The notes under the pieces: generated by a model | Databases searched by the model: none | What the model was told of the DNA's origin: nothing | Seen by the model: the letters and a program-made list of their open reading frames with translations, nothing else | Source: a phage | DNA: 64,000 bases | Direction: 5' to 3' (one strand) | Assembly: GCA_036252695.1 (NCBI GenBank) | Contig: GCA_036252695.1_4122.1 | Made by a program: the position numbers and the translations under genes | Shown here: positions 1 through 64,000 of the stretch, piece by piece | Layout of the letters: each line of letters opens with the position of its first letter | How positions within the stretch are numbered: the stretch's first letter is position 1

Positions 1-46
1 ACTGTATCATGTACTGTACCTAGCTTTCGTGTACTAAGAGAACAAT

Positions 47-232
47 ATGCATAAAGAATTCTACTTAAGCCATCTGGAACTAAACTCCCAAATGCTTATA
101 CCACTAAAACCAATAGATATCAAGGATAAGAAAAATACCAAACAATTCCACTACCACACACTATGTGCTATCAACCCAGATTATAATACATATAAACTGT
201 ACTACATTCTCGCCCTAATATATAGGTACTGA
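47..232 (+). CDS. small Tyr-rich protein, KE(F/Y)Y...LIYR tandem paralog 1
   Basis: ORF track; N-term MHKEFY, C-term LIYRY; no clear RBS. Confidence 0.3.
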   Translation: MHKEFYLSHLELNSQMLIPLKPIDIKDKKNTKQFHYHTLCAINPDYNTYKLYYILALIYRY

Positions 233-233
233 T

Positions 234-419
234 ATGCATAGAGAATACTATATACAATTTGTTAAAGGGAACTACAAACACGCCGTCCCCGTAAACCCCT
301 TAAATTCTAATGACCCAAGTACTATATTCTTGTTCCATGACGCAATACGTACAGTACTCAATACTAAAGATGAACAGGTGCAGTACGTATTCTTACTATT
401 ACTTATATACAGACACTAA
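234..419 (+). CDS. small Tyr-rich protein, tandem paralog 2
   Basis: MHREYY...LIYRH; paralog of neighbours. Confidence 0.3.
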   Translation: MHREYYIQFVKGNYKHAVPVNPLNSNDPSTIFLFHDAIRTVLNTKDEQVQYVFLLLLIYRH

Positions 420-424
420 CTAAT

Positions 425-634
425 ATGAATAAAGAACATAAAGAATTCTACTCCAAACACCTCAGCCCCTCAGAACAAATGTTTCTAAGGACTACAGCAC
501 CTTTAAGTACTGATACATATTTCGGCAGAGTATGCTACAATAATTGTATTCAAATGACTTTAAACGCAAACGCCAATAATAACAGTACTAATATGTACTC
601 CGGCATCATAGGTATACTATTTCTATATGAATAA
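425..634 (+). CDS. small Tyr-rich protein, tandem paralog 3
   Basis: MNKEHKEFY...; paralog. Confidence 0.3.
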   Translation: MNKEHKEFYSKHLSPSEQMFLRTTAPLSTDTYFGRVCYNNCIQMTLNANANNNSTNMYSGIIGILFLYE

Positions 635-809
635 AGAACATAAAGACTTCTACATAAGAAAACTAACATTCGTCCCCGTAAAAATATATAAAGAATGCGA
701 CCCAAGATTATACCTATGGCACTTCAATGAGTGCATAAAAGATTCTATATACCCTAAGAACTATAAAGAACAATTGTGCTCAGTACTAACACTAGTACTA
801 TCATATTAA
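627..809 (+). CDS. small Tyr-rich protein, tandem paralog 4
   Basis: MNKEHKDFY...LVLSY. Confidence 0.3.
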   Translation: MNKEHKDFYIRKLTFVPVKIYKECDPRLYLWHFNECIKDSIYPKNYKEQLCSVLTLVLSY

Positions 810-822
810 TAGAGATAATACT

Positions 823-1014
823 ATGCATAAAGACTATAAAGAGTACTATATAAGTAAACTAAAAGAAAACGAACAAGCATGGATTAACAATTTAATCCCC
901 CTGGCAATGACTCAATACGAATTTAATATGTGTACAAAGATTGTTTTAACTAGTAATGATATCTCTAATACGTACTACTTCCTATTAAGAGTACTATATG
1001 GTACTTTGAAATAA
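823..1014 (+). CDS. small Tyr-rich protein, tandem paralog 5
   Basis: MHKDYKEYYISKL...; shares EQAWI with paralog 6. Confidence 0.3.
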   Translation: MHKDYKEYYISKLKENEQAWINNLIPLAMTQYEFNMCTKIVLTSNDISNTYYFLLRVLYGTLK

Positions 1015-1025
1015 TAAGGTATACT

Positions 1026-1232
1026 ATGCAGAACATAAAAAACTATAAAGAGTACTATATAAGTAAACTACCACCGACTGACCAAGCATGGATTAGATCT
1101 ATAATAGTACTGGCATTTAATAGATATGCATTTAACAGATGCACAGAGATTGCTATAGACCCTTGTCCTATTAAAGAGAAGGCACAGTACAATCAGTACT
1201 ACTATATGTTAATGCTTATATATAGGAAGTAA
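1026..1232 (+). CDS. small Tyr-rich protein, tandem paralog 6
   Basis: KEYYISKLPPTDQAWI...LIYRK. Confidence 0.3.
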   Translation: MQNIKNYKEYYISKLPPTDQAWIRSIIVLAFNRYAFNRCTEIAIDPCPIKEKAQYNQYYYMLMLIYRK

Positions 1233-1299
1233 TTCAACATATAGACAGGGGAAGCTCCGTAGGGAAAGCATTGGACAGGCTTTAACATATGTTATATAT

Positions 1300-1346
1300 G
1301 TTAAAATTCAGCCTGCTCGACGTCTGAATTGTTAAAATTCAGCCTG
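1300..1346. repeat. direct repeat gttaaaattcagcctg x2
   Basis: Identical 16-mers at 1300-1315 and 1331-1346. Confidence 0.8.
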
Positions 1347-2359
1347 GACAAATGCGATCACTAGGATTCTCCCCAGGCTAAACCCCGTAATCATATGTAG
1401 TCATAAGTAATCATATATAAACATTTATATTAGCACCGTAGAATCACAGAATGATTATATATGATTCAGTACTGATTAGTATAGACAAGATTGCTCAAGA
1501 TTGCTCAAGAATGCTAGGGAAGGATTCAGTACTGCCCCAAAAGTATTCAGTACTGAAGGTGTCGATATCCCACTAAGTAGGCAGAGGAAGTCTGCCGTAC
1601 TTTGTAGTTTCCAAGCTCCTTTTCCATTTTGCAAATTACATCAAATGTAATCAAAAGTAATCACGCAATGATTAGTACTGAATTATTACTTTCACCTTAA
1701 TTACAATTACCCTTTTACCAGTCGGGGTAAAATTCAATTACCCCTTGAGGCTCCAGCAAAAAGTTGGTTAGTACTCCATCCTAAATCTCGATCCTAAAAA
1801 TTTTGGAGTACCTATGAAATAAAAGTTGGATCTTCGAAAGTTGAAATTTACGTTGGGACGTTTATGATTTGTGGGATATAATGATGTTTGTAGTCGGGTA
1901 GTTCTCAAGAATATCAGTACTGAAAGATGAAAGAAAGTTATTGACTTTATGATTCAGTACTGTATAATGTTCTACATAGCTTCAAGGGGTGATGAGTTGC
2001 TGCGAACAATTCATTTACTCTACCTACTGTCGTGAGACAGTACAGAAAAGATAGTTCCTCCTATTGGTGGTACATCTTTTTGAACCTCATATGAAAATCG
2101 TAATAACAGTACTGATATTAACAGAATGGTATCAGTACTGATTTTAATCTAAAGCATTATGCCACCAGCACAAGCTGGTGGATTCCCTCTAACAGTATTC
2201 AGTACTACATGATAGTCTTCATCCTCCTAGGGTAACATAGTGAGGGCTATGATGGCAGTACTGAATACTCCCTTTCAAAAGATAGATCTATGGTATAGTA
2301 CTGACGGATTTTGGGTGTAGTTACCCTGGGTGGATTTTGGACGTAGATATGTCTAGCCC

Positions 2360-2490
2360 TCCAGAAGTCTGGAAGTAAAGATGGCTATCCATCTAGACGG
2401 CTAAACGGCTAGATTTCTGGATGGCTAGACGTTTGGACGGCTAAACGGCTAGATGGTTACACGTCTGGAAGTATAGACGGCTAAATCAAA
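2360..2490. repeat. iteron-like interleaved direct repeats
   Basis: gacggctaaacggctagat at 2396-2414 and 2436-2454; agacggctaaatc 2475-2487; gtctggaagta 2367 and 2463. Confidence 0.7.
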
Positions 2491-3188
2491 ATTTTATTTT
2501 GTTTTTTCCAATAGTTCCCCTACCGCGTGGGGATAGTTTCCCCGCAGTATCTGGAGTTAGATTTTTCTGAATCTGGAATCATTATCTTATAAACTGGGGG
2601 CAATGTCAACGGCCTGGACGGATATTTTTAAAAATTTTTTTCAGTACTGAATTTTGGGCGTAACTATGCACCCGGTGGGCTTGAGTCTTTCTCGACTTGA
2701 TGGAACTATTATACAGTACTGAAAAAAATAAAGCAATACCCTGGAAGCAAAAAAGTTTTAATTAATTTGCTTGCTATCCTGGGCCGGACTATGGTACTAT
2801 ATTTCAGTACTGAGAAAGTGCGTTTACCTGCTAGGGTGCGGGAGTGTATCCTTTTTTTATATCTTGAATTTTGGGCGTAATTCCGCACCCTCTGGGGTTT
2901 CCGCTTTCTCGCGTCTATGTAGTAATTATACGCTTTTTCAGGATCAAGTCAATACCTAAAAACAAAATAATTGAAAATAATTTAACGCGTTTAAACGGCC
3001 CGTAAAGCCCTGGAATGATTGGAATGGTGCAAATGTATAGCTTAGGTGTATTAATGCGTTAGAATGCGTCTGAGGCCGTTTTATGGGGTGTAGTAGTGAT
3101 TTGGTTGATTCAGTACTGAATGATAGTACTGAATAATAGTTCCCCTATATAGAAAGAAAACTATTTTAAAAGTACATGTAGAAAGTAC

Positions 3189-3247
3189 TTGCAAACTATG
3201 TTTAAAGGCGTATAATGTTTTACATCGAGAGCGGGAACACTTCCCGC
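3189..3247 (+). promoter_or_regulatory. sigma70 promoter + 5' stem-loop cassette
   Basis: -35 TTGCAA 3189-3194, -10 TATAAT 3211-3216, hairpin gcgggaacacttcccgc 3231-3247. Confidence 0.75.
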
Positions 3248-4640: not shown

Positions 4641-4887
4641 GCAGTTTACAAATCTTTACAATTGCCGGTATTGACTTATTTTGTCAGTACTGGCATAATG
4701 TATTCATTGGCAGATAAGCCGTAGCCCATAGGGTGCGGGAGTGTATCTATAGAAAAAGTAGTTTAGTATAGTTACAATTGTGCACCCGGTGGGTTAGCTG
4801 TTGTCATGGGGTATATTATGCCAGTACTTGATAATGCTGTCAATACTTTTTTAATATTCAGTACTGAAAACTATTTTTAAAAAGTAC

Positions 4888-4915
4888 TTGCAAACTATGT
4901 TTAAAGGCGTATAAT
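4888..4915 (+). promoter_or_regulatory. sigma70 promoter (upstream of conserved 80-nt leader)
   Basis: -35 TTGCAA 4888-4893, -10 TATAAT 4910-4915. Confidence 0.65.
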
Positions 4916-4921
4916 GTTTTA

Positions 4922-5000
4922 CATCAGGACGGGGAACGAAATAAGTAACTTCCCGTTAAGTAGCCCAGGAGTAAGGCACACGAAAAACTCCCCTGATAAA
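4922..5000 (+). ncRNA. candidate small RNA / structured leader, copy 1
   Basis: ~80 nt between two tandem promoters; near-identical copy at 15897-15976; no ORF. Confidence 0.25.
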
Positions 5001-6328: not shown

Positions 6329-6336
6329 AAAAGTAC

Positions 6337-6396
6337 TTGCAATTAGTTTCAAGTACTGTATAATGGTTTACATCAAAGGGGGAAATGGTTCTCCCT
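6337..6396 (+). promoter_or_regulatory. sigma70 promoter + 5' stem-loop cassette
   Basis: -35 TTGCAA 6337-6342, -10 TATAAT 6359-6364, hairpin agggggaaatggttctccct. Confidence 0.75.
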
Positions 6397-14038: not shown

Positions 14039-14395
14039 ATGGGAATACAACATATCACGCGTACTACTGACAATGGTGAGATCACTGGCTATCAAGTACA
14101 GGGCAAAGTAGCACAATTGCAGTACTGGTTTGAAAAACGTGGAATCATTGCACCGGATCTTGATTATGACCGTGTAGCGTTTATTGATTCTCTTTATGTT
14201 GATCCTGATAGTCGGGGCAATGGTGAAGGTAACGAATTAATGAATGCCTTTATCGATGCCGCCGATGATTCAGATTGTATCATCTTAGAATGCGATACGG
14301 GAGAAGATAACGCCTTTAATCTTAAAGAATGGTACGAAGGTTTTGGATTCGAGGTACTGATCGATAGTGAATATCCTATCATGATTTTATCATAG
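14039..14395 (+). CDS. putative small GNAT-family acetyltransferase
   Basis: RGNGEGNELM (motif A-like R-G-x-G-x-G) and NAFNLKEWYEGFGF (motif B-like); 118 aa. Confidence 0.45.
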   Translation: MGIQHITRTTDNGEITGYQVQGKVAQLQYWFEKRGIIAPDLDYDRVAFIDSLYVDPDSRGNGEGNELMNAFIDAADDSDCIILECDTGEDNAFNLKEWYEGFGFEVLIDSEYPIMILS

Positions 14396-14687: not shown

Positions 14688-15011
14688 ATGTATATTCACA
14701 CTACTATCACAAAAGAAGTCCGTTGTCAATTCGAAAGTATCCCAGGTGTATGTTTCATTACAGGCACTTTCTCACCTGGTGACCGTGATAATCCAGTACT
14801 GTTACAATTACGCCATCCATCATGGGATAAAGCATTTGATCTACCGTTGAATGAATTCGCAACTACTGCTGAAAAGTACATTAAAAATATTCGCGAGAAT
14901 GATCGACTATTCATTAATGCTTTCAGTGATTCCGCGTTAAGCGAGATTCATGCGGTACTAGTTGCAATCATGGAATCAATGCAGAAAACTAAATTCAAAC
15001 AAGGTGAATAA
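14688..15011 (+). CDS. hypothetical early protein
   Basis: RBS aggaaaa; ORF track. Confidence 0.6.
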   Translation: MYIHTTITKEVRCQFESIPGVCFITGTFSPGDRDNPVLLQLRHPSWDKAFDLPLNEFATTAEKYIKNIRENDRLFINAFSDSALSEIHAVLVAIMESMQKTKFKQGE

Positions 15012-22594: not shown

Positions 22595-22625
22595 TGCGTA
22601 AAGGGATCTAGTACTGATTCAGAAA

Positions 22626-22690
22626 AAAGTCAAGGCGTTTTTAAAATAATGCGTTAAAAAAATGCATAGGTAATCCCTTGACTTTTTTAA
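22626..22690. repeat. inverted repeat at the compositional boundary
   Basis: aaaaagtcaagg 22626.. and reverse complement ccttgacttttt ..22690, ~35-nt loop. Confidence 0.6.
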
Positions 22691-22785
22691 AATAAAAGGG
22701 ATTGGACTATGGCAAAATGCGTAGGGGGCTAAAGGGCGGGTAACCTTAGCGACTTCGATAAAGGGGTATTACGAATAAAATGTTA

Positions 22786-22813
22786 TTGACTTTTTATACA
22801 ATTCATATATTAT
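22786..22813 (+). promoter_or_regulatory. sigma70 promoter at head of the LGTNYQ-family array
   Basis: -35 TTGACT 22786-22791, -10 TATTAT 22808-22813. Confidence 0.55.
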
Positions 22814-22843
22814 ATGATTGATATTATTTTCAAGGGAGTCCCT

Positions 22844-23041
22844 ATGCGTATTTTAACTCAAGCAGAACACCACGAAAGACTTATCAATAACATGGCTATG
22901 ATAATGTATAAGTCACATGACCGTGGTATTGCCTATAAGCGTGAATTAATTATGGCACTATTCATTGGGACTAACTATCAGGAAAGGTATGTCAAGGATT
23001 GGATTTGGTATTTAATTGAAGATGTAACGAGTAAACTATGA
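22844..23041 (+). CDS. LGTNYQ-family small protein (A1)
   Basis: RBS caaggga; motif FIGTNYQERYV. Confidence 0.6.
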   Translation: MRILTQAEHHERLINNMAMIMYKSHDRGIAYKRELIMALFIGTNYQERYVKDWIWYLIEDVTSKL

Positions 23042-23238
23042 AAATGCGTAAATTAACCGAAAAAGAATATCAAGCACTGTTACGTAAAAACTTCACAAAG
23101 ATTTATAATACAGACTCACACGTAGAACGAATGGAGTTATACCTTTTGATTACATTGGGAACTAACTATCAGGATGCATGGGTAACGAAATATGTGGATA
23201 CATTGAAAAATGAAATTTTGTCCACGAGGAAACAATGA
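23038..23238 (+). CDS. LGTNYQ-family small protein (A2)
   Basis: ATGA coupling; TLGTNYQDAWV. Confidence 0.6.
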   Translation: MKMRKLTEKEYQALLRKNFTKIYNTDSHVERMELYLLITLGTNYQDAWVTKYVDTLKNEILSTRKQ

Positions 23239-23444
23239 AAACTATAACACGAACCCAATCATACGGTCTTATCTTGAAATACATGGACTTAATGGTGGAT
23301 ATCAGCAAAGACCTTCCTAAAACTGAAATTGAAGTTGCAAGAGCAGAGATCCGTATGTTGGCTGTACTGAACACAAACCATCAGGAAGAGTATGTTCAAG
23401 ATTGGATTCGATTTTTAATAGAAGATATTAAGAGTAAACTATGA
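23235..23444 (+). CDS. LGTNYQ-family small protein (A3)
   Basis: ATGA coupling; VLNTNHQEEYV. Confidence 0.6.
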   Translation: MKTITRTQSYGLILKYMDLMVDISKDLPKTEIEVARAEIRMLAVLNTNHQEEYVQDWIRFLIEDIKSKL

Positions 23445-23653
23445 TTATATTAACACCTGAAGAATATAAGAAACGTTTTAAATCTGTCCAGGCTGAAATA
23501 TTACTTATATACCTTTCAAATGCAGATCTTAACTTATCAAGGGTAATGGAGAAGGATTTACTTATGGGTGCATTTTTGGATACAGACTTTCAGGAGTATT
23601 ATGTAGGAGAATACTTTATTGCACTTCAGAACCACATTAAGAGTAAACTATGA
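23441..23653 (+). CDS. LGTNYQ-family small protein (A4)
   Basis: ATGA coupling; FLDTDFQEYYV. Confidence 0.6.
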   Translation: MIILTPEEYKKRFKSVQAEILLIYLSNADLNLSRVMEKDLLMGAFLDTDFQEYYVGEYFIALQNHIKSKL

Positions 23654-23865
23654 TTATTCTAGAAAAATCATATCAATATACTGAACGCATCGCTGCCAGA
23701 CAACTTGAAATCCTCATAATATACGAAGAGACTTCTGATTTAAACTTAGCCGAGGTATTGGAAAATGAAATACTTTTGGGTGCATTCTTGGGAACAGACT
23801 ATCAGGAGTATTATGAGGAAAAGTATTTGTCATCTCTTGAGAAATACGTCAGGAGCAAACTATGA
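23650..23865 (+). CDS. LGTNYQ-family small protein (A5)
   Basis: ATGA coupling; FLGTDYQEYYE. Confidence 0.6.
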   Translation: MIILEKSYQYTERIAARQLEILIIYEETSDLNLAEVLENEILLGAFLGTDYQEYYEEKYLSSLEKYVRSKL

Positions 23866-24089
23866 AACATTTAAGTAATATAGAGAAGAATAAAATTATC
23901 ATTGCTGTAATAAACAAATATTTTACACTTCCACAAAAAGAATGTTTATCTATAAGGGAACACAGGATAAACACCACCGAGATTCGCATGTTGGCTGTAC
24001 TGGGGACTAACTTCCAAGAAGGCTATGTTCATGAGCACATCGTTGCACTCACTAATTACATAATGGACAAATGTAATGAACATCATTAA
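23862..24089 (+). CDS. LGTNYQ-family small protein (A6)
   Basis: ATGA coupling; VLGTNFQEGYV. Confidence 0.6.
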   Translation: MKHLSNIEKNKIIIAVINKYFTLPQKECLSIREHRINTTEIRMLAVLGTNFQEGYVHEHIVALTNYIMDKCNEHH

Positions 24090-24300
24090 TAACTTTGAAT
24101 ACGAGGCCCGTGCTAAGAGTGCCAGAAAAAAAGAGAACACCATTTACTTCACTATGATGTACTTACAATGGACTGAAATTGAAGAAAAGGTTGCTGAAGT
24201 ATGGATGTTGGAATTCATGGGGACGCAGTATCAGAATAGGTTTGCGGGTGAGTATATCAATGTTCTTATGAAACAAATAGAAAGAAAGGAAAAGAACTAA
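24076..24300 (+). CDS. LGTNYQ-family small protein (A7)
   Basis: FMGTQYQNRFA. Confidence 0.55.
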   Translation: MNIINNFEYEARAKSARKKENTIYFTMMYLQWTEIEEKVAEVWMLEFMGTQYQNRFAGEYINVLMKQIERKEKN

Positions 24301-24458
24301 TGGTTTTCATTAACATATCTGACCAACTCGATACTAAACTAAAAGTCGAGCAGAGTGAGGGATGGATGCTGTACTTTCTTGGAACTTCTCATCAGAATTT
24401 TTATGTCCATGAACACATAGTTGCACTCACAAATCTAATAAGGGATAAATGTAAATGA
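24300..24458 (+). CDS. LGTNYQ-family small protein (A8, 52 aa; not in ORF track)
   Basis: TAATG overlap; FLGTSHQNFYVHEHIVALTNLI. Confidence 0.5.
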   Translation: MVFINISDQLDTKLKVEQSEGWMLYFLGTSHQNFYVHEHIVALTNLIRDKCK

Positions 24459-24712
24459 AACACTTGACGAACGATGAATATTCACTTAGAATTCGAAAGC
24501 TCACCCCAGAAGCAAGACTAATCTACGATGACGGTGAACTTTCATGGAACGAGATGAAAGTTAAAGTTCATGAGCTATGGTTGCTGTACTTTGTGGGAAC
24601 CCAATATCAAGAGAAATATTGTACCGATTATCTTGAACAACTAATGGATCTTATACAGATAAAACTAAATGAACGAATTGTGGAAAAATATGAAGACTTT
24701 ATCAAGCACTGA
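24455..24712 (+). CDS. LGTNYQ-family small protein (A9)
   Basis: ATGA coupling; FVGTQYQEKYC. Confidence 0.55.
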   Translation: MKHLTNDEYSLRIRKLTPEARLIYDDGELSWNEMKVKVHELWLLYFVGTQYQEKYCTDYLEQLMDLIQIKLNERIVEKYEDFIKH

Positions 24713-24941
24713 GTATCAGACTGCCCTCTTCTCTCTTCTTAACACCCTTAGAAAAAACTATGCATTACATGGTGCACCTGAATTGGATGTTATCAACGGT
24801 GATGTTTATCTTATGAAATTCATTGGAACAAACTATCAAGAACTGTTCACTCAACGATATATCTCTGCACTGAGAAACGAAATATCAGATAAAACCCGCC
24901 AAGCCCAAAGAGAATGGAAGAGACAATGCAACAAAGACTAA
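24690..24941 (+). CDS. LGTNYQ-family small protein (A10)
   Basis: FIGTNYQELFT; start uncertain (24669 or 24690). Confidence 0.5.
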   Translation: MKTLSSTEYQTALFSLLNTLRKNYALHGAPELDVINGDVYLMKFIGTNYQELFTQRYISALRNEISDKTRQAQREWKRQCNKD

Positions 24942-25177
24942 ATCACAAAATGTATTTTAAACTATTACAGAATCTAGGACAAAAACACTATGATACAGTA
25001 TCTGAAATATTACCCTATGATATCATGCGTTTAATTCATAGTGAGGCAGAGATGCTTGTACTGATGACAGGCACTGATAAAACAGCAATTACCAAATCTA
25101 TAGATATGTTCATCGATGCACACTGCCAACACATTAGAACCGAGATATGGAGACGTGAGAATGAAAATCCTGACTGA
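24926..25177 (+). CDS. divergent member of the small-protein array (A11)
   Basis: LMTGTDKTAIT degenerate motif; start uncertain. Confidence 0.4.
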   Translation: MQQRLNHKMYFKLLQNLGQKHYDTVSEILPYDIMRLIHSEAEMLVLMTGTDKTAITKSIDMFIDAHCQHIRTEIWRRENENPD

Positions 25178-25376
25178 GCATGAGTATTACAATAGGTTAA
25201 GAACTATACAAGGAAAAGTCTCGTGGACTTTTTTAGATAATTCTATTGCAGAAGCGGACCGATGTGTTATAATAGCTGAAATGAAGCTATTACTCTTCAT
25301 TGGGACAAACTATCAAAGTATCTACATAGACGCATGGTTAAGCAGCTTACGTCTGAAGTCGGTGAGTTTAAAATGA
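25161..25376 (+). CDS. LGTNYQ-family small protein (A12)
   Basis: RBS ggagacg; FIGTNYQSIYI. Confidence 0.55.
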   Translation: MKILTEHEYYNRLRTIQGKVSWTFLDNSIAEADRCVIIAEMKLLLFIGTNYQSIYIDAWLSSLRLKSVSLK

Positions 25377-25591
25377 GAAAATTAATAGGTTTCGAATATG
25401 TTAAGCTTCTACAAACCTGTGGAATCAGAAGGAGAATGATTCAAAAGGATAAAAGAATTGCCGAAGAACGAAAGTATATAATGATAACTGAACTTTATGT
25501 CTTAACACTCTTAGGCACAAACTATCAACACACTTATGTAGACCTATGGATCGATGCACTACAGAAAGAGGTTAAAAGTAAATGCAAATGA
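25373..25591 (+). CDS. LGTNYQ-family small protein (A13)
   Basis: ATGA coupling; LLGTNYQHTYV. Confidence 0.6.
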   Translation: MRKLIGFEYVKLLQTCGIRRRMIQKDKRIAEERKYIMITELYVLTLLGTNYQHTYVDLWIDALQKEVKSKCK

Positions 25592-25800
25592 TTAATTTAA
25601 GTAAAGACGAATTTTATGTTATACTGGCGAAAACTTATCCAGCACGTAAGGCCGTTTATGATAGTCACATTATTGAACCCTCAAAGAAGTTGATTTTAGT
25701 AAATGAGATAAAGATGCTTTCAGTCTTAGGAACAAACTATCAAGAGAATGCTGTACTGTTGTTAATTGATGCCCTCAAGAGAGAGATACAAAGTAAATGA
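25582..25800 (+). CDS. LGTNYQ-family small protein (A14)
   Basis: VLGTNYQENAV. Confidence 0.6.
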   Translation: MQMINLSKDEFYVILAKTYPARKAVYDSHIIEPSKKLILVNEIKMLSVLGTNYQENAVLLLIDALKREIQSK

Positions 25801-26021
25801 TTAATTTAACTTACCATGAATATCAAAAACGTTTAAATGCATCCAGAGATATAAGGATTCAAATATTCAATAACAAAAGATTGAAGCCTGATATCAGGAA
25901 AATCAAAATCATAGAAGCAGAGTTGTGCAACTTTCTAGGGACGAACTATCAGGCAGGTAAGGTAAAAAACTATCTTAAAGAACTCATGAATAGTATTGAA
26001 AATAAATGTAAGGGTAATTAA
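25797..26021 (+). CDS. LGTNYQ-family small protein (A15)
   Basis: ATGA coupling; FLGTNYQAGKV. Confidence 0.6.
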   Translation: MINLTYHEYQKRLNASRDIRIQIFNNKRLKPDIRKIKIIEAELCNFLGTNYQAGKVKNYLKELMNSIENKCKGN

Positions 26022-26022
26022 C

Positions 26023-26289
26023 ATGAAAATGATCAATTTAAGTAAAGATGAATATAACGAGCGACGTGCAAAAATCTCAACTAAACGCACCGAAATCTAT
26101 TACAGCGAAGAAATCAAACACGACAAGAAGATGATTATGATACGTGAGTTGATAATGGGTGCTATGCTAGGAACTAACTATCAAGAACAAGAGGTACAAC
26201 TCGTATTAAATGAATTACTAATGGAAATCAGAGGTAAGCTGTACTTTCATCAAATGACCCGCCCACTAAGGTGTACTAGGAATGATTAA
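26023..26289 (+). CDS. LGTNYQ-family small protein (A16)
   Basis: MLGTNYQEQEV. Confidence 0.55.
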   Translation: MKMINLSKDEYNERRAKISTKRTEIYYSEEIKHDKKMIMIRELIMGAMLGTNYQEQEVQLVLNELLMEIRGKLYFHQMTRPLRCTRND

Positions 26290-26497
26290 CATCACATTAC
26301 AAGAAAGGTTCATACGCATCAACTATGCAATTTCCAAATTAGATGCTACAATAGGATTTCAAAGTCTACCATACAAAACCAGATTGTTATTAGAGTGTGA
26401 AGCTAAGTTGGGTGTACTGTTAGGGACGCAACACCAACAACGATATGTGGAAATCTGGATTGACCTTTTAACCCAAAATATATATGAGAGAATGTAA
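26282..26497 (+). CDS. LGTNYQ-family small protein (A17)
   Basis: LLGTQHQQRYV. Confidence 0.55.
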   Translation: MINITLQERFIRINYAISKLDATIGFQSLPYKTRLLLECEAKLGVLLGTQHQQRYVEIWIDLLTQNIYERM

Positions 26498-26728
26498 ATG
26501 CAAAATGAAATGATATACATAACGAATGAAGAATTTCAAGAGAAGATGTTAAAAACAAAAAACATTAATCTTAAGTTCGTTCCAAATCAATCAATATATG
26601 AAGTATCTGCAAATGTATTGTTTCAGAAGTTACCATACGTTCTTGGAACTGATAAACAAGAATTTATGGTTCAAAATATGATTGAACATCTTATGATGAG
26701 TATTAAGGAAAAAGTAAATGCAAAATGA
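26498..26728 (+). CDS. LGT..Q-family small protein (A18)
   Basis: YVLGTDKQEFMV; N-term MQNEMIY shared with A19. Confidence 0.55.
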   Translation: MQNEMIYITNEEFQEKMLKTKNINLKFVPNQSIYEVSANVLFQKLPYVLGTDKQEFMVQNMIEHLMMSIKEKVNAK

Positions 26729-26963
26729 AATGATATACTTAACATATAATGAATACGTCGAGAGATTAGTTAGTGCCAAGAGATATACAAATCAACTTCC
26801 TCACAACCCAAACCAAACCCCAGAGGAAAAGAATGCGGAAGCTCTATTCCAAGCACTACCATACCTTCTTGGAACTGATAGGCAGGAGTATCACGTTGAA
26901 CGTATAATTAAATCTCTTAAAATCACTATTAAGGAAAAGATACATGAAACACTTGACAGATGA
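26718..26963 (+). CDS. LGT..Q-family small protein (A19)
   Basis: YLLGTDRQEYHV. Confidence 0.55.
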   Translation: MQNEMIYLTYNEYVERLVSAKRYTNQLPHNPNQTPEEKNAEALFQALPYLLGTDRQEYHVERIIKSLKITIKEKIHETLDR

Positions 26964-34077: not shown

Positions 34078-34105
34078 GTGTAATCATTTTAAAGGAGAAC
34101 ATATA

Positions 34106-35758: not shown

Positions 35759-35759
35759 T

Positions 35760-35954: not shown

Positions 35955-35962
35955 GGTAAAAA

Positions 35963-36816: not shown

Positions 36817-36826
36817 GGAAAGTACA

Positions 36827-37378
36827 ATGAGTTCAATGAGTTTATTAGATACATTAGAAAAAGACAGAAGTGCAATTAAGCGTTTAAAAGAGCAAGTACA
36901 AAAGATTGTATACAACGTTGATAAGTTTGAGGTTCCCGGAAGATTTGGTGATATTTCCCATACGGAGATCAAATCCCTTAAGTCAGATTTGTTGATTAAA
37001 AATAAAAATGGGTTGATTTTAGTTTTGAGTTCAGATATGATGGGGGCAACACATAGTTATAATGCAGTATCGGTGCGTTCCGAGTGTGAAGGTATATATC
37101 TATCACAGGGTTTCAATAGCGAGACACAGGTTTGTTTTTGTGATGCAGTACATGACCCTATGAAGTTCACGAGAAGTGAAGCCCAAGCGTTATTAGAGCT
37201 ATCAGACGAGAGTTTGTTTCAGTACAGTACAATGTATGACAATGATAAGCTTCGTTGTATGTACGCTGTAAAGCATTATACACAGGAGTTCTCTGGATTT
37301 GCATACCTTTTAGTTAGAACCAATACCAGATATATTGATATGTTAGAAGATTACATCGATAAAGTTGTTAATGTATGA
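36827..37378 (+). CDS. FQ-motif family protein (B)
   Basis: RBS aaggaaag; DESLFQYSTMYD. Confidence 0.55.
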   Translation: MSSMSLLDTLEKDRSAIKRLKEQVQKIVYNVDKFEVPGRFGDISHTEIKSLKSDLLIKNKNGLILVLSSDMMGATHSYNAVSVRSECEGIYLSQGFNSETQVCFCDAVHDPMKFTRSEAQALLELSDESLFQYSTMYDNDKLRCMYAVKHYTQEFSGFAYLLVRTNTRYIDMLEDYIDKVVNV

Positions 37379-37553
37379 TTTTGTGATGGGATGATGCTAA
37401 TGAAAGAGTTATTTGAAGATCAGTTCAATACATATGTGGATAATATTCTTTATTCCAGTCGTGCCAGTCAACGAGGAAATCGTGCTTACAATATTGATTA
37501 CCTATTGGTGGTGCTGAGTTCACAGTACACCAATGCGGTACAAAGGGTTTATT

Positions 37554-37763
37554 ATGAAAAGTGCAAGTAATAGTGATATTGCAAAGGAGAAGTTTAAGTG
37601 CAGTTTAGATTACGGTTTAAATGATTTTCTTACATGCACAATGTACAGGAATGATGATTATGAACAATCCGTAATTTCGTTGCATCGATATTTCGAAATA
37701 ATTTACGCAAGATATCTTAGAAGGTTAGAGGGAATAGGGGATTGGTATTATGATTACGTTTGA
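37554..37763 (+). CDS. hypothetical small protein
   Basis: ORF track frame; start uncertain. Confidence 0.3.
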   Translation: MKSASNSDIAKEKFKCSLDYGLNDFLTCTMYRNDDYEQSVISLHRYFEIIYARYLRRLEGIGDWYYDYV

Positions 37764-37986
37764 AGAACCAGAAACAATGAGTCCATATACGATGAAAGGT
37801 TTTGAATTCATGATGGATTCGATTTTGAAGAGTTCGTGTTTAGTACACAATCCTGAGCGTGCAACAGTGAGGGAATATCAGGACAATGCATTACAGCGTG
37901 TAATGAATATGTACAGGAATACGAGTCGCAAGCTTTGTGCGTTGAAAAGGATTGAAGAAATCAAGGTTTCTAGGCTGAATAAATAG
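37750..37986 (+). CDS. hypothetical small protein
   Basis: ORF track. Confidence 0.4.
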   Translation: MITFEEPETMSPYTMKGFEFMMDSILKSSCLVHNPERATVREYQDNALQRVMNMYRNTSRKLCALKRIEEIKVSRLNK

Positions 37987-38191
37987 AGACGTTTCATTTT
38001 GACAGGCCGCTGGAGGGGGTCAAAAAAATTTCCGCTGAAAAACATGCTAAGGTATATGTTTAATATAAAGTTTTATATTGTGTTTTTCAGAGTACAGTTC
38101 ATGTTTCCTTAAACAAAAAAATACCCCGCCACCGAACGTGCTCCTTATATTGGAGTTTACCTTATTAATTATAGTAGAGACTACAATTGAA

Positions 38192-38575
38192 ATGAAGATG
38201 CAAATAAAATATAATGAATTTTGTGCAAGGACATGGATGTACACTGGTGAGTTAGTTACGCACTCTAACTTATACAAGGGTGATTTAAACTACGCTAGGG
38301 ACAAGATTTTAAAGTACTGGAATGCTGACTTTTATTTGATGGATTTTAGTACTGGGTTTAGGGGTAAAGCAACCGAGATGTTGGACTATACAGTACTTGA
38401 TGATGCTGCACTGTTTCAGGAGGCATTAGTATTTGATAAGAAGTACATCTGTACATTAGAAGAGATGATTGAATTACAGCGTAGAATTAAATGTATTCAC
38501 AGGGAATGTATAGATATCTGGTGCAGTACTGGTGAAGATGATTTTTGTAATCATTTCAATCTAGGGGAAGTGTGA
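38192..38575 (+). CDS. FQ-motif family protein (subtype C, LFQEALVFDKKY)
   Basis: DYTVLDDAALFQEALVFDKKYICT. Confidence 0.55.
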   Translation: MKMQIKYNEFCARTWMYTGELVTHSNLYKGDLNYARDKILKYWNADFYLMDFSTGFRGKATEMLDYTVLDDAALFQEALVFDKKYICTLEEMIELQRRIKCIHRECIDIWCSTGEDDFCNHFNLGEV

Positions 38576-50833: not shown

Positions 50834-51400
50834 ATGAGTACTGAATTAATTAAAGAAGTCACATTACTTCTGAAGCATTGTTTTAAGTTCATTCCTGATA
50901 CTGGCTCACGCCAGTACATTAAAGTTAATGAGAAATATAACATCAATATCCTTGTATCTGAAACTGCGAGCAGTTATGCAAACATTGAGTTGGATTCTGA
51001 AGAAAAATATACAGTATTACAAATCATAGCAGATGTACAACGTAAACAAGATTATCGTTCTTCATTTTACAACGATCATCTGTGTGTTTGCTCAAACTTC
51101 AGTGAGAATAAAATTGTGTATAAGAATTTATACACACATGAAGTGATTGATACATATAATTATAAAATTTCATCTGATGAATACAATGTTCTAATGTTCA
51201 ACGCAAACCTTTTGTATGATGCCAGTACTGTACGCTGTTTAGAGTTAGCATATAAAATTCCAAAGATCATGGAAAGAAAAGATTTGATTCACTTTAAAAC
51301 TATTTTAAAATACAGTACAAAAGAATTAGAGGATTTAGTACAGGCTCTTAAGAATTTCATTAATGAACATGTACCTGTTAAATTCGAGGATGCACAATGA
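50834..51400 (+). CDS. hypothetical protein (189 aa)
   Basis: RBS ggagga before ATG 50834. Confidence 0.55.
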   Translation: MSTELIKEVTLLLKHCFKFIPDTGSRQYIKVNEKYNINILVSETASSYANIELDSEEKYTVLQIIADVQRKQDYRSSFYNDHLCVCSNFSENKIVYKNLYTHEVIDTYNYKISSDEYNVLMFNANLLYDASTVRCLELAYKIPKIMERKDLIHFKTILKYSTKELEDLVQALKNFINEHVPVKFEDAQ

Positions 51401-51981
51401 ACCATATCAGAACTAAAATTTTGAGACTCATGCATGACATTGCAGAACTTTCAGAGATTCATGACATTACAGAAATTGTTGAATTTGATGATTATCGACT
51501 GAAAATTGAAAACAAATCCAAACATCGTTTTGGATCAGTTCAGTTGGATGTATATAAAACTTATGAATTTTCTAAAAAAATTAAAAGTTCATGGGATACG
51601 ATTACTATGTACATTCGCACATCCAGAAATCGTGAACGTATTGGTTCTATTTCTTCTAATATGGTATTTGCGAATGCATTACATGAAAAAATGAATAAAA
51701 TTGTAGAATCTAATTTCAGTGAAGATGATGGATTTATTGGGTTGGATGTTCCACCAGAATTAGACCAAAGTGAAGATATTCGAGATGCATTCATTTTCCA
51801 GAAATCCTTGTTGGACAATTACAAAGAATTCGAGTACTTAATGCTTTGTTACGATACTGCAAAAATTCTTGATTGTGGTGAACTAGTTATGTACAATGAT
51901 TTTATCAATTGCAAGACTGATGTTCTGAATACACTACTTCAAAATATAGAATCTGTTAAGGAAAAATATGAACGCTTATAG
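51397..51981 (+). CDS. FQ-motif family protein (B-like)
   Basis: ATGA coupling; RDAFIFQKSLLD. Confidence 0.5.
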   Translation: MNHIRTKILRLMHDIAELSEIHDITEIVEFDDYRLKIENKSKHRFGSVQLDVYKTYEFSKKIKSSWDTITMYIRTSRNRERIGSISSNMVFANALHEKMNKIVESNFSEDDGFIGLDVPPELDQSEDIRDAFIFQKSLLDNYKEFEYLMLCYDTAKILDCGELVMYNDFINCKTDVLNTLLQNIESVKEKYERL

Positions 51982-52546
51982 TTATATGACAGAACGCCAT
52001 CAGTTATTATATGATATCAGTAAAAAAATGCTATCAATTGTTGGTAGTGCGAAAGAAATTGAAAAACAATATCTCATCCGTGATGTATCAATTTCATCCA
52101 AATGTTGGTCAAATGAATATTACGACCACGGTATTCTTACTATTTCTGGGGCCAGAAATATTTGTATTGTAAAAAATAAAAGTAAAAGTAATGAAGAGTG
52201 TGAGATTAGAACCGATATACAAATTAAGGATGATGGAAGTTTTTCACACCACCCATTCCATATTAGTACTGTTGGTGTTTTATATAATATTAAAGTACTA
52301 TTCGGTGATGAAGAGTATGTGTTAAAATCTATCAATCCAGATTCAAGTACAGTTGAAGAAGAACTGTTCCAGATGAGCACTGTTATACCTGAAGAGGTTC
52401 TTAGTACTATTATTTTTTGTAGTTTAATTTATCATGAATACAAAAAGAACCAGTTCGATTTCCACATGTTAGGAACGTACATCTTCAATAATTTGAATGT
52501 AGATCGTTTAAAAGCATTAAATGCAGCAATGGATAAGGTTATATAA
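51968..52546 (+). CDS. FQ-motif family protein
   Basis: EEELFQMSTVIP. Confidence 0.55.
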   Translation: MNAYSYMTERHQLLYDISKKMLSIVGSAKEIEKQYLIRDVSISSKCWSNEYYDHGILTISGARNICIVKNKSKSNEECEIRTDIQIKDDGSFSHHPFHISTVGVLYNIKVLFGDEEYVLKSINPDSSTVEEELFQMSTVIPEEVLSTIIFCSLIYHEYKKNQFDFHMLGTYIFNNLNVDRLKALNAAMDKVI

Positions 52547-52974
52547 TGACAAGAGATGATTGTTTGTACATATGGGATATAATTGAAACTACACTTTCAA
52601 ATCCAGAAAATTATAAAACAAAAAAAAGACAACGACACAAAATATGGATAGATTTGTTCGTTGAGGGCATACACGCAGTGACTATTTGGGATTCACCGAG
52701 GGCATCAGCATCTACTCTATTGGACAATGAATGCATTGATTGTATTAATTCCACTTTTCATCTCTACGGTACTACATTTTTCGGTACATTTCTGGATATT
52801 GAAAGTAAAGATGATATTGATTCACTTGCGTTACAATACCAAGTACTGTATAATACTAAATTAATTTACGATTTAGTACTAGCTTCTTATGTGTATAAAT
52901 TAATGATGAAATATAATCATATTTCAGTTTCAGTTTATACTAAGGATATTCTTTCATTAAGAGACAAAACATGA
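52546..52974 (+). CDS. hypothetical protein
   Basis: ORF track; TAATG coupling. Confidence 0.45.
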   Translation: MTRDDCLYIWDIIETTLSNPENYKTKKRQRHKIWIDLFVEGIHAVTIWDSPRASASTLLDNECIDCINSTFHLYGTTFFGTFLDIESKDDIDSLALQYQVLYNTKLIYDLVLASYVYKLMMKYNHISVSVYTKDILSLRDKT

Positions 52975-53480
52975 GTTTATTAAATGCACGCGAATTAGTT
53001 GAGATGTATGAGATTTTGTCTTCATATAAAAATTCTCATGGAGATGTGATTCTCGACAAAAAGTTCCATGTCAGTGTTGAACATATATCAAATATAGATA
53101 TGATTTCTTTGGTGGAAAGTAATAAGTCAGGTCTTGAACGCGATATCATGCGTTTGATTTATATTCCCAAACCATCATATACTAATGATAGTTCAATTAG
53201 TAATGAGACATTCATGTATAGTCCTGGTACGGATTCTACTATAGTATCGCTGTCCAATAAATCAATGGGTACTTTCCAATTCATCTATACCAGTACTGAT
53301 AACATTGAAGAAATTGAATTTCAAAACAATACATTAAGTCCATGTAGTAGTGTTATAACCTTTATGTCATATCTATGGTCAACTAAAACAAGTGCTGTTG
53401 TATATAGTTCAAATTATACACAAGATAGTATTGTTGAATCATATAAAGTTCTAAAGGAATACTATGAAAATAACAAATGA
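52971..53480 (+). CDS. FQ-motif family protein (divergent)
   Basis: ATGA coupling; EEIEFQNNTLSP. Confidence 0.5.
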   Translation: MSLLNARELVEMYEILSSYKNSHGDVILDKKFHVSVEHISNIDMISLVESNKSGLERDIMRLIYIPKPSYTNDSSISNETFMYSPGTDSTIVSLSNKSMGTFQFIYTSTDNIEEIEFQNNTLSPCSSVITFMSYLWSTKTSAVVYSSNYTQDSIVESYKVLKEYYENNK

Positions 53481-60798: not shown

Positions 60799-60810
60799 GT
60801 CTGGAGATGT

Positions 60811-61665: not shown

Positions 61666-61694
61666 GACAAATGATAAGTTAATGATATAATATA

Positions 61695-61729
61695 AGGTGA
61701 CAACATAATATGTTAGTCACCTTTTTTTA
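61695..61729 (+). terminator. intrinsic terminator
   Basis: aggtgac...gtcacct hairpin + ttttttt. Confidence 0.8.
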
Positions 61730-62270
61730 ATCCTGAAAGGTTCCCATAAGGAAATGATTAAAAGCCTAATCCACTCGAAAATGTAGAGGGTAGATGAGTA
61801 GTCCTTTCAGTACGAACAGCAGATGAAACCCGTTAGATGATGGCATAGTTTGAACCACTCACGGCAATGCGGCTGTATAAAGAACTCCAATAGGATAAAG
61901 AGAGTTCCTCGATAGACATATAAGGATCGCACCTTACCAATTATCTAAGGGAGATTTCATAAGAAATATGCGGTCGGAATTATACAATATAGTTGCGTCC
62001 AAATTTTGTGAAATCAAATACAAGTACTGGTCATATGGTATTTGTATTATGTGTCGGGATGTTTAAGACCGACGACCGTTGCTACAAGAACCGCGATAGA
62101 GAGAAACAGAGCAACCCGCTTTCGTCTCGTAAGAGAATTCGTGATATGAACTATGTGAAGGCCACCAGCGTCAAATTTTTTTGTTCTTTCCCCTGCGGGG
62201 GGATGAAATATGCTCAAGCAAACCCCGTCAATATTAATTAAAAGAAAATAGTACTTGTGTAGAATTAGAC
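61730..62270. other. GC-richer ORF-poor island with multiple hairpins (function unknown)
   Basis: No RBS-supported ORF; hairpins gtcgggatgtttaagaccgac, cccctgcgggggg, ctgaaagg...cctttcag; composition unlike flanks. Confidence 0.4.
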
Positions 62271-62345
62271 ATGCGTAGCATGATAATTCTACTGATGTTG
62301 ATGCAATCAACGTCACGTATATTCATTGATGTTTCCATAGGAATA

Positions 62346-62891
62346 ATGATGGCATTTATTAGAAAAGAAAAAACTGTTACTTATAAAACTTTGAATTTTG
62401 ATGATTGCATTAATCAATCACAAGACGAAGATATCTTTACTGGATATGTGGTTATTAAAGAAAAAGGATGCATTTCTTATATAAAGGAATTACAAAATGG
62501 AATTGAAGTAACTTCAGTTAAATTACTTCCTACTCAAAAACCAACAATATCAAAAGCCCAGTATGGTAATTATTTTGAAGAAAGATATAGTAATAATTCA
62601 ATAAGTGTTAAGGCTCATATTATTAAAGGAGAACTAGAAGGAGAATATAGAAAATACAACCCACAAGGAAAATGTGTTTGGGTTAAATACTTCAATTCAG
62701 GATATGATGTAACATCTGAAATTATAGAGTTCTTGGGTTTAAAATGTACCCCTGAGACTATTCATGATTACAAGTTCAATACTGAAGAAGAGTTTAATCT
62801 GATGATGCGTTACGGTTCACATTTTAAATTTTTATATGAATATAACATTGACAGTAGTACTTTTGATAAGATAGTACACAACTGTCTCTAA
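62346..62891 (+). CDS. hypothetical protein
   Basis: ORF-track ATG at 62271 lacks an RBS; ATG 62346 has agga upstream; start uncertain. Confidence 0.4.
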   Translation: MMAFIRKEKTVTYKTLNFDDCINQSQDEDIFTGYVVIKEKGCISYIKELQNGIEVTSVKLLPTQKPTISKAQYGNYFEERYSNNSISVKAHIIKGELEGEYRKYNPQGKCVWVKYFNSGYDVTSEIIEFLGLKCTPETIHDYKFNTEEEFNLMMRYGSHFKFLYEYNIDSSTFDKIVHNCL

Positions 62892-62907
62892 CAAAAGGAA
62901 TTATATA

Positions 62908-63429
62908 ATGTCGAAGAAGGATGCTTCGAAAAAACATTCAGTACATTTCAGTACTGGAAAAGATAACTGGACAACTCCCAAAGATTTCTTTGAAGATTTG
63001 GATGAGTTATGGGGATTTACACTTGATGCTGCTTGTGTTGATGAGACTGCATTGTGTGATAATTTTTTCACTCCAGAAGATGATTCACTATCACAGGATT
63101 GGGGAAATAATATAGTTTGGTTGAATCCACCATACAGTGACTTGAAAACTTGGTTATCTAAAGCAGTAGATGCATATAATAACGGGGCAACTGTAGTTAT
63201 TCTTGTACCCTCAAGAACCGACACAATTGCTTTTCAGGATTATGCTGCTAAAATATGTGATTGTATTTGTTTTATTAAGGGAAGATTACGATTTGGTATA
63301 CCAGAAGAACCCGATAAGAAAACAGATTCAGCACCATTTCCTTCGTGTCTGATAGTACTGGATAAGTACTTAACCACTGCTAAAATCAATTATCTTAAAT
63401 CTCTTGGGTTGGTGATGAAGAATTTATGA
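62908..63429 (+). CDS. DNA N6-adenine methyltransferase (small phage Dam-like, NPPY motif)
   Basis: WTTPKDFFEDL...WLNPPYS; (D/N)PPY is catalytic motif IV of amino-methyltransferases; 173 aa. Confidence 0.65.
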   Translation: MSKKDASKKHSVHFSTGKDNWTTPKDFFEDLDELWGFTLDAACVDETALCDNFFTPEDDSLSQDWGNNIVWLNPPYSDLKTWLSKAVDAYNNGATVVILVPSRTDTIAFQDYAAKICDCICFIKGRLRFGIPEEPDKKTDSAPFPSCLIVLDKYLTTAKINYLKSLGLVMKNL

Positions 63430-63959
63430 AAGAAACATGTGTATTAACGTTTGGTCGTATTAATCCTGTACATCGTGGACATGGTTTAGTTTTTGAAAAG
63501 GCCAAAACATTACAAGAACAGTACAATGCTGATTTAAAAATATATCTAAGCACCAGTACTGACAATATAAAAAACCCACTCCCACCTGAACTAAAAATGT
63601 ATTATACAGAGGGATTCTATCCTTCAGTGCAAGAGAACATCTACACAGAAGACAATCTATTTGATATAATGAGAGAACTGGATGGAAAGTACTTAGATGT
63701 TCTTTTCATTTGTGGTTCTGACCGTATTGATTCTTTTCAAAAAACTCTTGACATGTACAATGGTAAGTTGTATAATTTTTGTAGTATAAAAGCAATTCAG
63801 GCAGGTATTGACCGTAATGTAAGTCAATATAGCTCAACACAAATGCGTAACTTCGCAAAAAATGAAGATTTTGATAGTTTTCGTGAGTTTTTACCTGGAA
63901 ATGACGAGGACTTAAAAATACAATTATTTGAAGACGTTATAAAATACATGAGGAAATAA
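63426..63959 (+). CDS. HxGH-type nucleotidyltransferase (NMN adenylyltransferase-like)
   Basis: FGRINPVHRGH (GxxxPxHxGH) and YSSTQMR (SxTxxR); ATGA coupling to the methyltransferase. Confidence 0.6.
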   Translation: MKETCVLTFGRINPVHRGHGLVFEKAKTLQEQYNADLKIYLSTSTDNIKNPLPPELKMYYTEGFYPSVQENIYTEDNLFDIMRELDGKYLDVLFICGSDRIDSFQKTLDMYNGKLYNFCSIKAIQAGIDRNVSQYSSTQMRNFAKNEDFDSFREFLPGNDEDLKIQLFEDVIKYMRK

Positions 63960-63961
63960 TT

Positions 63962-64000
63962 ATGTCAGTACTGTTCAAAACCAATCCAGTACTTTGGGAT
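63962..64000 (+). CDS. hypothetical protein, 5' end only (runs off window)
   Basis: ATG 63962 directly after upstream stop; MSVLFKTNPVLWD... Confidence 0.3.
   Translation, partial: MSVLFKTNPVLWD

Follow-up and report, generated by a model that had tools for sequence, protein, structure and literature searches.

AGTACT in Rak2-like jumbo phages: a densely maintained palindromic hexamer as a candidate dispersed protein-binding site, and an ACT-free gene module

The palindromic hexamer AGTACT pervades a 64,000-nucleotide stretch of phage DNA (contig GCA_036252695.1_4122.1 of GenBank assembly GCA_036252695.1), which was analysed as a whole and is referred to here as the window. By megablast, the window belongs to the Asteriusvirus group of Escherichia coli jumbo myophages (PBECO4, 121Q, G17 and phAPEC6). 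Its best matches are 91-99% identical by segment, with 121Q reaching 98.9% over 30.7-38.2 kb, and no megablast record is identical across the whole window. A congener, fEgEco12, has experimentally supported direct terminal repeats (DTR) of 20,993 bp (PMC13070987). The left physical genome end lies at position 1,576 of the window, where the 20-mer that starts the fEgEco12 repeat maps and where the end of the G17 record aligns at the same base. Positions 1-1,575 thus hold the last unique genes, and the DTR and early region occupies 1,576-22,570 on the plus strand, with small genes that each possess their own sigma70-type promoter and terminator; the right boundary (~22,570) is set from the length of the fEgEco12 repeat. 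Small genes crowd the rest of the window (22.6-64 kb), with almost every one of them on the plus strand.

The AGTACT excess and its phylogenetic range

An exact count gives 255 copies of AGTACT in the 64,000 bases, against 21.4 expected from base composition and 17.5 under an order-1 Markov model, and none of 100 dinucleotide shuffles (17.1 +/- 3.7 copies, maximum 29) reaches that number. The excess is 12-15-fold by counts and shuffles; it remains 5.6-fold against order-2 and 2.6-fold against order-3 Markov models, which already absorb the sub-words of the motif itself. The longer form CAGTACTG is present in 68 copies where 0.7 would be expected. AGTACT is by far the most over-represented hexamer, and those next in rank, CAGTAC and GTACTG, are its own overlapping words. 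Against this stands the fate of the other palindromes: 26 of the 64 palindromic hexamers, for which 105 copies are expected together, are wholly absent from the window, 23 are missing from all 350 kb of the complete phAPEC6 genome, and GATC and GGCC are also under-represented. This loss of palindromes, seen as well in KP13-7, GAP32 and Yen9-04, is extreme restriction-site avoidance; hence, AGTACT accumulates in a genome that otherwise discards palindromes.

A preliminary description of the window, made from its letters alone, had put the excess at 20-fold and the spacing at one copy per 100-150 bp. Both were overstatements, the mean spacing being 1/251 bp overall and ~1/160 bp in the first 22 kb only, though its count of 15 copies between 1,468 and 2,812 is exact. 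It was also right in placing the hexamer in coding and non-coding DNA alike and in all reading frames: 158 copies lie in open reading frames (ORFs; 2.96/kb, 65/37/56 by frame), 93 in fully non-coding DNA (8.8/kb), and 4 straddle ORF ends, which makes non-coding DNA about three times as dense as coding DNA (8.8 vs 3.0/kb). What it missed is that the distribution is not uniform, with two blocks entirely free of the motif (22,611-27,252 and 30,725-38,312) and a maximum in the terminal repeat (132 copies, 6.3/kb). Within ORFs, the 158 copies compare with 41-51 after synonymous-codon shuffling and 21 after codon-order shuffling; therefore, the order of amino acids and the context-dependent use of codons have both been bent toward AGTACT, and a codon or dipeptide artefact is rejected by these shuffles and by the use of all three frames. 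An artefact of one repeat family is likewise rejected, since the 40-nt flanks are unique at 206 of 254 sites and a single site per repeat cluster still leaves 219 non-redundant contexts with a 12.5-fold excess.

The excess extends over whole genomes and across genera. The complete phAPEC6 genome carries 913 copies against 101 expected, and every 5-kb bin is enriched bar the two special blocks, including the genes for capsid, tail, polymerase and nucleotide metabolism; the maximum (6-7.6/kb) again falls in the region equivalent to the early region and DTR. AGTACT is also the top hexamer in the sampled regions of the Klebsiella phage KP13-7 (Alcyoneusvirus; 62 vs 7.6 expected), the Cronobacter phage GAP32 (Mimasvirus; 253 vs 13.8) and the Yersinia phage fHe-Yen9-04 (Eneladusvirus; 188 vs 11.4). 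In contrast, a 50-kb sample of E. coli K-12 shows no excess (3 vs 4.8), and neither does a Justusliebigvirus (2 vs 8.3), which has the same host, a similar GC content and a similar palindrome avoidance, and which even contains one copy of the early promoter acquired by horizontal sharing. With both controls at chance or below, a host-imposed bias is rejected, and the trait is one of the Rak2-like jumbo clade rather than of its host. Alignment of phAPEC6 genes with those of KP13-7, at 74% nucleotide identity, shows 15 of 39 AGTACT sites at matching positions (38%, compared with 19% for hexamers overall), and the totals are equal, at 39 and 40. Hence, density is maintained while individual sites turn over. 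The resulting density is ~40-65 times that of sampled host DNA.

Early promoters, flanks and the terminal repeat

In the terminal repeat, AGTACT is part of the sigma70-type early promoters, where it is found in several registers, and the promoter contexts quoted in the preliminary description, in spacers and beside -35 elements, do exist. The hexamer abuts the -35 element as AGTAC/TTGCAA or AGTACTA/TTGACA and the -10 element as AGTACTG/TATAAT (the slash marks the junction). At 6,332-6,364 (plus strand), two copies 20 bp apart combine these registers, with AGTAC/TTGCAA (-35), a spacer and then AGTACTG/TATAAT (-10), and the same two-copy architecture recurs at 7,116, 10,913 and 14,394. Related registers are AGTACTATTGACA...AGTACTG at 9,222, 12,592 and 20,314, and TTGAC/AGTACT, which overlaps the 3' end of the -35 element, at 13,987, 17,812, 18,093 and 20,648. 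A further copy lies ~23 bp upstream, and other copies are found beside terminator hairpins. Strict pattern matching places 36 copies in the two main promoter registers, and the sole peak in AGTACT spacing (20-23 bp) comes from promoter pairs. A promoter-only motif is rejected, as 62% of the copies lie inside ORFs and only ~36 in strict promoter registers. Registers that vary while always overlapping the regions contacted by polymerase are typical of operators and not of activator sites with a fixed position. From this layout we infer a resemblance to an operator that competes with RNA polymerase.

One such promoter module, ttcAGTACTgaaaactatttttaaaaAGTACTtgcaa-N16-tataat at 4,860-4,925 (plus strand), recurs 8-24 times per Asteriusvirus genome. 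The module AAAAAGTACTTGCAAACTA...TATAATG at 4,872-4,924 is 96% identical over 53 nt to its counterpart (locus L014, 20,001-20,053) in unrelated coliphages of ~145 kb (Justusliebigvirus and relatives) without a genome-wide AGTACT excess. The shared module implies horizontal transfer of a promoter-plus-gene cassette.

The sequence around the hexamer provides a second line of evidence. The 653 sites counted over 290 kb of phAPEC6 sequence, most of it coding, have flanks that mirror each other: position -1 prefers C (47%) and shuns G (5%), position +6 prefers G (43%) and shuns C, with p about 1e-82 for the C/G preference, T at -3/-4 is mirrored by A at +8/+9, and A at -8/-9 by T at +13/+14, so that the symmetry spans about 24 bp. 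On the coding strand, the full palindrome is enriched 10.5-fold and half-palindromic words only 1.35-2.4-fold, with no consistent strand preference between partners (AGTACA 2.2 vs TGTACT 1.35; AGTACC 1.5 vs GGTACT 2.4); variants in one orientation are confined to the two motif-free blocks. As judged from these sequence patterns, the symmetry of the flanks and the lack of strand bias would favour a dimeric reader of double-stranded DNA and argue against an RNA signal. Further, none of the nine classes of one-mismatch neighbours is strongly depleted, with observed-to-expected ratios of 1.0-3.2 and only AGGACT/AGTCCT at 0.6. A drive by repair or mutation is thus disfavoured.

An ORF-free region at 1,233-3,214 spans the genome end. 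AGTACT is present there 18 times, for the most part in the form (T)TCAGTACTGA(A), along with other short repeats, namely two copies of TGTTAAAATTCAGCCTG, GGCTAAACGGCTAGA-like units and four copies of GAATTTTGGGCGTAA. The region is thus a candidate for recognition by the terminase or for signals used in replication. The terminal repeat also holds all nine plus-strand copies of the E. coli Chi octamer GCTGGTGG (2,174, 8,596, 13,107, 13,617, 14,567, 15,814, 18,183, 19,591 and 21,054; 0.2 expected), and the opposite strand has three more, including one close to the genome end (2,162). These copies suggest DNA ends protected from RecBCD; as the phage carries true Chi, AGTACT is not its Chi.

Other features of the window are of less direct bearing. 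Pfam matches among the small ORFs comprise a DksA/TraR zinc finger, a GNAT acetyltransferase (14,039-14,395), two DUF7249 proteins, DUF7247 (14,688-15,011) and a ParE/RelE-like toxin domain, the last of which is not localised, being absent from the 30 window ORFs tested one by one. There is no Rfam family match and no tRNA in the window. GTC and GAC trinucleotides are persistently depleted, for example with 1 GTC against 15 expected in the 2 kb at 51,001-53,000. Most genes of the Rak2/121Q group lack a known function, the share of such proteins being reported as about 83% (phAPEC6; PMC7247149).

The ACT-free tract and the AGTAC-free block

The larger of the two motif-free blocks reflects a constraint on a trinucleotide. 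The tract at 30,722-38,180 (7,458 bp, plus strand) contains 17 genes and not one ACT on the coding strand, a gap of 143 times the mean ACT spacing of 52 bp. The usual codon usage of the genome predicts ~117 copies (48/40/29 by frame), and the minimum in 200 resamplings is 94. ACT is absent from all three frames by synonymous choice, as illustrated by threonine, which is encoded by ACT at none of 107 codons against 45% elsewhere. The genes are mostly unrelated ORFans, and their proteins match no Pfam family and belong to PHROG families without known function. Depletion begins at ~28,841, and four of the six ACT that remain before the tract lie inside AGTACT. Within the tract there are 41 AGTAC (5.5/kb), each of which is followed by A (41/41) and never by C or G, so that AGTACA stands in place of AGTACT. 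Thus, the function of AGTACT appears to be kept via AGTACA under a separate constraint that forbids ACT; the density of the substitute indicates that this function is still required there and that A is tolerated at the outer position.

The ban is kept in phAPEC6, where the other strand shows it as a ban on AGT, and in Ecwhy_1 (7,839 bp) and Turkey3 (8,790 bp), whose tracts are only 76-80% identical to that of the window; ph0011 retains a decayed form, with 2-6 ACT/kb. No second tract of this kind is present in the 350 kb of phAPEC6, and the sampled regions of GAP32, KP13-7, Yen9-04, JLBYU50 and E. coli contain nothing similar, the largest trinucleotide gap there being at most ~23 times the mean. 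The right edge of the tract is a mosaic boundary (window 37,987; relatives L009 and L010), with identity to Ecwhy_1 and Turkey3 of 76% inside and 93-94% outside. Hence, the module appears, from these alignments, to have been exchanged as a unit between lineages. A special conservation of the element at this edge is rejected: the element is no more and no less identical than the flank downstream of it, and so marks the mosaic boundary.

On the simplest reading, the transcripts of the tract would be immune to a putative ACU-specific endoribonuclease, with a cause at the level of the DNA strand as a possible alternative. mRNAs that lack ACA or GCU are immune to MazF or MqsR, respectively, and the phage tract resembles them in that its coding strand is wholly devoid of one trinucleotide, in all frames and through synonymous choices. 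It differs in comprising 17 genes over 7.5 kb, which form only a putative transcription unit. No ACU-specific ribonuclease was found here, and we know of none. The searchable literature yielded no phage precedent for such an ACT-free gene module, which points to a trinucleotide-specific activity.

The smaller block, at 22,611-27,252 (plus strand), is free even of AGTAC. It is a tandem array of ~20 paralogous genes of ~70 aa that begins just after the terminal repeat, and ten TGTACT occupy seemingly homologous positions in the paralogs, as judged without alignment. The block is probably explained by the duplication of a motif-poor founder gene, and its standing as a second ban was downgraded to an effect of the paralog array.

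Candidate readers of the hexamer and comparison with known systems

The positive DNA-level function that the preliminary description proposed for a palindrome hoarded in a palindrome-purging genome is supported by the codon-aware nulls, by conservation with turnover across four genera, and by the host and unrelated-coliphage controls. Of the functions listed there, recognition by a DNA-binding protein gains from the symmetric ~24-bp flanks and the lack of strand bias; a mutational footprint loses ground, and a packaging or replication signal does not fit because AGTACT is spread over all 350 kb. Hence, we tentatively favour the reading of AGTACT, with its preference for C/G or A/T at the outer positions, as a dispersed double-stranded DNA site for a putative clade-specific, symmetric (dimeric) binding protein of Rak2-like jumbo phages. 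The enrichment, the DNA-level selection, the symmetry, the placement at promoters and the distribution in the clade are shown; we infer the protein nature of the reader, its origin in the phage genome and the effect of its binding. Selection would keep the sites dense genome-wide (~2.6/kb, and 6/kb in the terminal repeat with the early genes) as single sites turn over. As this density is so far above that of sampled host DNA, AGTACT could mark phage DNA as self. At early promoters, where the sites overlap the -35 element, the junction of spacer and -10 element, and the upstream region, they would act as an operator in competition with RNA polymerase, and such an operator-like layout suggests that an accumulating reader probably shuts off or gates early transcription.

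Several points weigh against this proposal. A Pfam search of 124 window ORFs and 10 sigma-neighbour ORFs returned no DNA-binding fold, be it HTH, RHH or AbrB, and no reader protein was found. AGTACT spacings show no helical phasing. Only ~36 of the 255 copies are in the two strictest promoter registers, and the ~160 copies in genes are left without an explained purpose. Early promoters would be shut by a repressor already there when the DNA is injected, which obliges the proposal to assume a timing. A methyltransferase or another modifying enzyme would also read a palindrome symmetrically, and there is a slight chance that the reader comes from the host and is shared among Enterobacterales.

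The first of these alternatives is the main rival and is possible, if on balance unlikely: AGTACT would be the target of a phage-encoded, sequence-specific modification, either methylation or a bulkier adduct, with selection raising the number of modifiable sites for protection or for promoters that sense replicated as opposed to injected DNA. AGTACT is a classical type II palindrome, the recognition site of ScaI. The clade encodes a C5 methyltransferase, and the window itself carries a Dam-like (PF05869) DNA adenine methyltransferase gene (62,908-63,429, plus strand), identical to phAPEC6 gp394c and followed by a cytidylyltransferase-like gene (63,426-63,959). This pair is syntenic in all four AGTACT-rich genera and, going by sequence, is the only visible candidate writer should AGTACT be a modification target. 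RaK2 DNA reportedly resists methylation-sensitive enzymes (PMC3622015), and an orphan methyltransferase that acts on AGTACT is reported from a giant virus (PMC7253447). Yet the C5 methylation reported for RaK2 is at a CpG site (PMC3622015), and AGTACT contains no CpG; no enzyme of known AGTACT specificity was found; symmetric flanks that reach +/-9 bp are unusual for a methyltransferase; and the extreme avoidance of 23-29 other palindromes argues that these phages rely on site avoidance rather than on blanket modification. Virion DNA of fEgEco12 is cut as predicted by ten restriction enzymes (PMC13070987), which speaks against global hypermodification. In the searchable literature, we found neither a paper linking AGTACT to these phages nor ScaI or methylome data for them. 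Given a mean spacing of ~380 bp in phAPEC6, ScaI should reduce these genomes to pieces of some hundreds of bp, provided that modification does not protect AGTACT.

Two further explanations are each improbable. In one, AGTACT would be the site of a phage nicking or cleaving enzyme that loads clamps for replication or late transcription, or that starts recombination-dependent replication. Other phages are known to have nicks at specific sites, a palindrome presents an identical target on either strand, and its density here is genome-wide. The replication and recombination genes of these phages are T4-like, and their late sigma factor resembles gp55. However, the restriction patterns of fEgEco12 are those predicted for intact DNA, the density peaks in the early-promoter region and not near late genes, and the fixed promoter registers are left unaccounted for. 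In the other, the excess would be a by-product of mutational or repair bias, such as a conversion resembling very-short-patch repair or a polymerase bias. CCWGG in E. coli exemplifies a palindrome that such a drive can raise above expectation, and the sub-words GTAC, AGTAC and GTACT are in excess too. Against this, the neighbour classes are not strongly depleted, and the one at 0.6 (AGGACT/AGTCCT) would need a transversion; sites are conserved in place at twice the background rate and occupy specific promoter registers; and the flanks are symmetric, with one specific variant, AGTACA, replacing AGTACT in the ACT-free tract.

A host reader, which the phage would recruit or titrate, is likewise improbable. 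The clade infects Enterobacterales exclusively, its genera share one unchanged hexamer, and the nucleoid-occlusion factor SlmA of E. coli binds GTGAGTACTCAC, a consensus that contains AGTACT and in which G1, T2, A4 and G5 are needed (PMC3020112). The phage sites do not follow it: none of the 913 copies in phAPEC6 or the 255 in the window fits GTRAGYRCTYAC, G1 and T2 are not favoured around the hexamer, and SlmA-type flanks are 2-3.5-fold depleted (half-site flanks 12 vs 23.4 and 8 vs 27.8). Moreover, SlmA-binding sites (SBS) lie outside promoters (PMC3020112), whereas at least 36 phage copies are in -35 or -10 registers. SlmA sites are thus rejected, and SlmA as the reader is already largely refuted. 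An unrelated phage of the same host lacks the enrichment, as noted above. Among the other host regulators considered, TrpR has the half-site arrangement GTACT-N8-AGTAC and LexA has CTGT-N8-ACAG. Operators of both kinds are rejected, with the TrpR geometry found once in the window and three times in phAPEC6 and the LexA geometry not at all and once, respectively; AGTACT spacings show no peak at 14 or 18. Finally, an RNA-level unit, with AGUACU as a processing, pairing or protein-binding signal in transcripts, is very improbable: a single strand carries almost every gene, pairing in RNA is open to any pair of copies, copies flank terminators, and the ACT-free tract reveals some strand-specific, possibly RNA-level constraint in the genome, but half-palindromes show no consistent excess on the coding strand, the flanks are mirror-symmetric, copies lie within promoters upstream of transcription starts, and there is no Rfam match.

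To return to the clade-specific binding protein, a broader picture may be drawn around it, although we regard it in its entirety as doubtful. In it, the ~900 copies of AGTACT would constitute a self tag that separates phage from host DNA, for protection, allocation of RNA polymerase or control of silencing, and that gates the early promoters; independently, the ACT-free module of 17 genes and 7.5 kb would be immune to a putative trinucleotide-specific and strand-specific nuclease, most simply an ACU-cutting endoribonuclease. Regulation in the Rak2/121Q group of jumbo phages is almost unstudied, and a hexamer in ~900 copies offers a concrete and cheap experimental handle. Work on it could reveal a global DNA-reading system, possibly one that discriminates self from host without base modification.

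Among phages, the closest parallels are dispersed sets of operators, as typified by the stoperators of Cluster A mycobacteriophages and the C1 operators of phage P1. Like these, AGTACT is short, repeated genome-wide, and found at promoters as well as in and between genes; in the known cases, one phage protein reads the sites and controls transcription globally. However, stoperators and C1 operators are asymmetric and orientation-biased, number a few dozen (~0.2-0.6/kb), and belong to temperate phages with identified repressors. AGTACT, in contrast, is a palindrome of 6-8 bp at 2.6-6/kb (~900 copies), is mostly in coding sequence, and occurs in phages described as virulent with a reader that is putative. 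A second parallel is with the genome-wide over-represented oligomers of bacteria, viz., Chi, the FtsK-orienting polar sequences (KOPS), and the uptake signal and DNA uptake sequences (USS/DUS), which mark DNA as self for a molecular machine. These too are strongly over-represented against Markov expectation, in coding and non-coding DNA and in all frames, and turn over with their density kept. They are 8-12-mers, with Chi and KOPS being strand-polar and USS/DUS linked to uptake, whereas a palindrome such as AGTACT can have no polarity.

With a ScaI restriction-modification target, AGTACT shares the identical sequence, the symmetry of the palindrome and the presence of methyltransferases in the phage; it departs from such targets in being 12-15-fold enriched, when restriction targets are normally depleted in phages. 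Unlike over-representation of the Dcm/Vsr repair type, it shows no depletion of its one-mismatch precursors. In the searchable literature, there is no match for the combination of a 6-bp palindrome at 2.6-6/kb that lies mostly in genes, is invariant across four lytic jumbo-phage genera and is built into early promoters. The scattered, chromosome-organising palindromes that are read by dedicated proteins and act by occupancy rather than gene by gene, namely the SBS, the Noc-binding sites (NBS), the parS sites of ParB and the matS sites of MatP, are comparable in that AGTACT is likewise a scattered palindrome, and the SBS share its core (PMC3020112). The SBS need the outer GT..AC, number ~50 copies per 4.6 Mb and avoid promoters; the phage sites lack those outer positions, are ~200 times denser and are built into promoters. 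Over-represented, dispersed sites that are read by a dedicated protein are thus an already known kind, as exemplified by Chi, USS, the stoperators and SBS/NBS.

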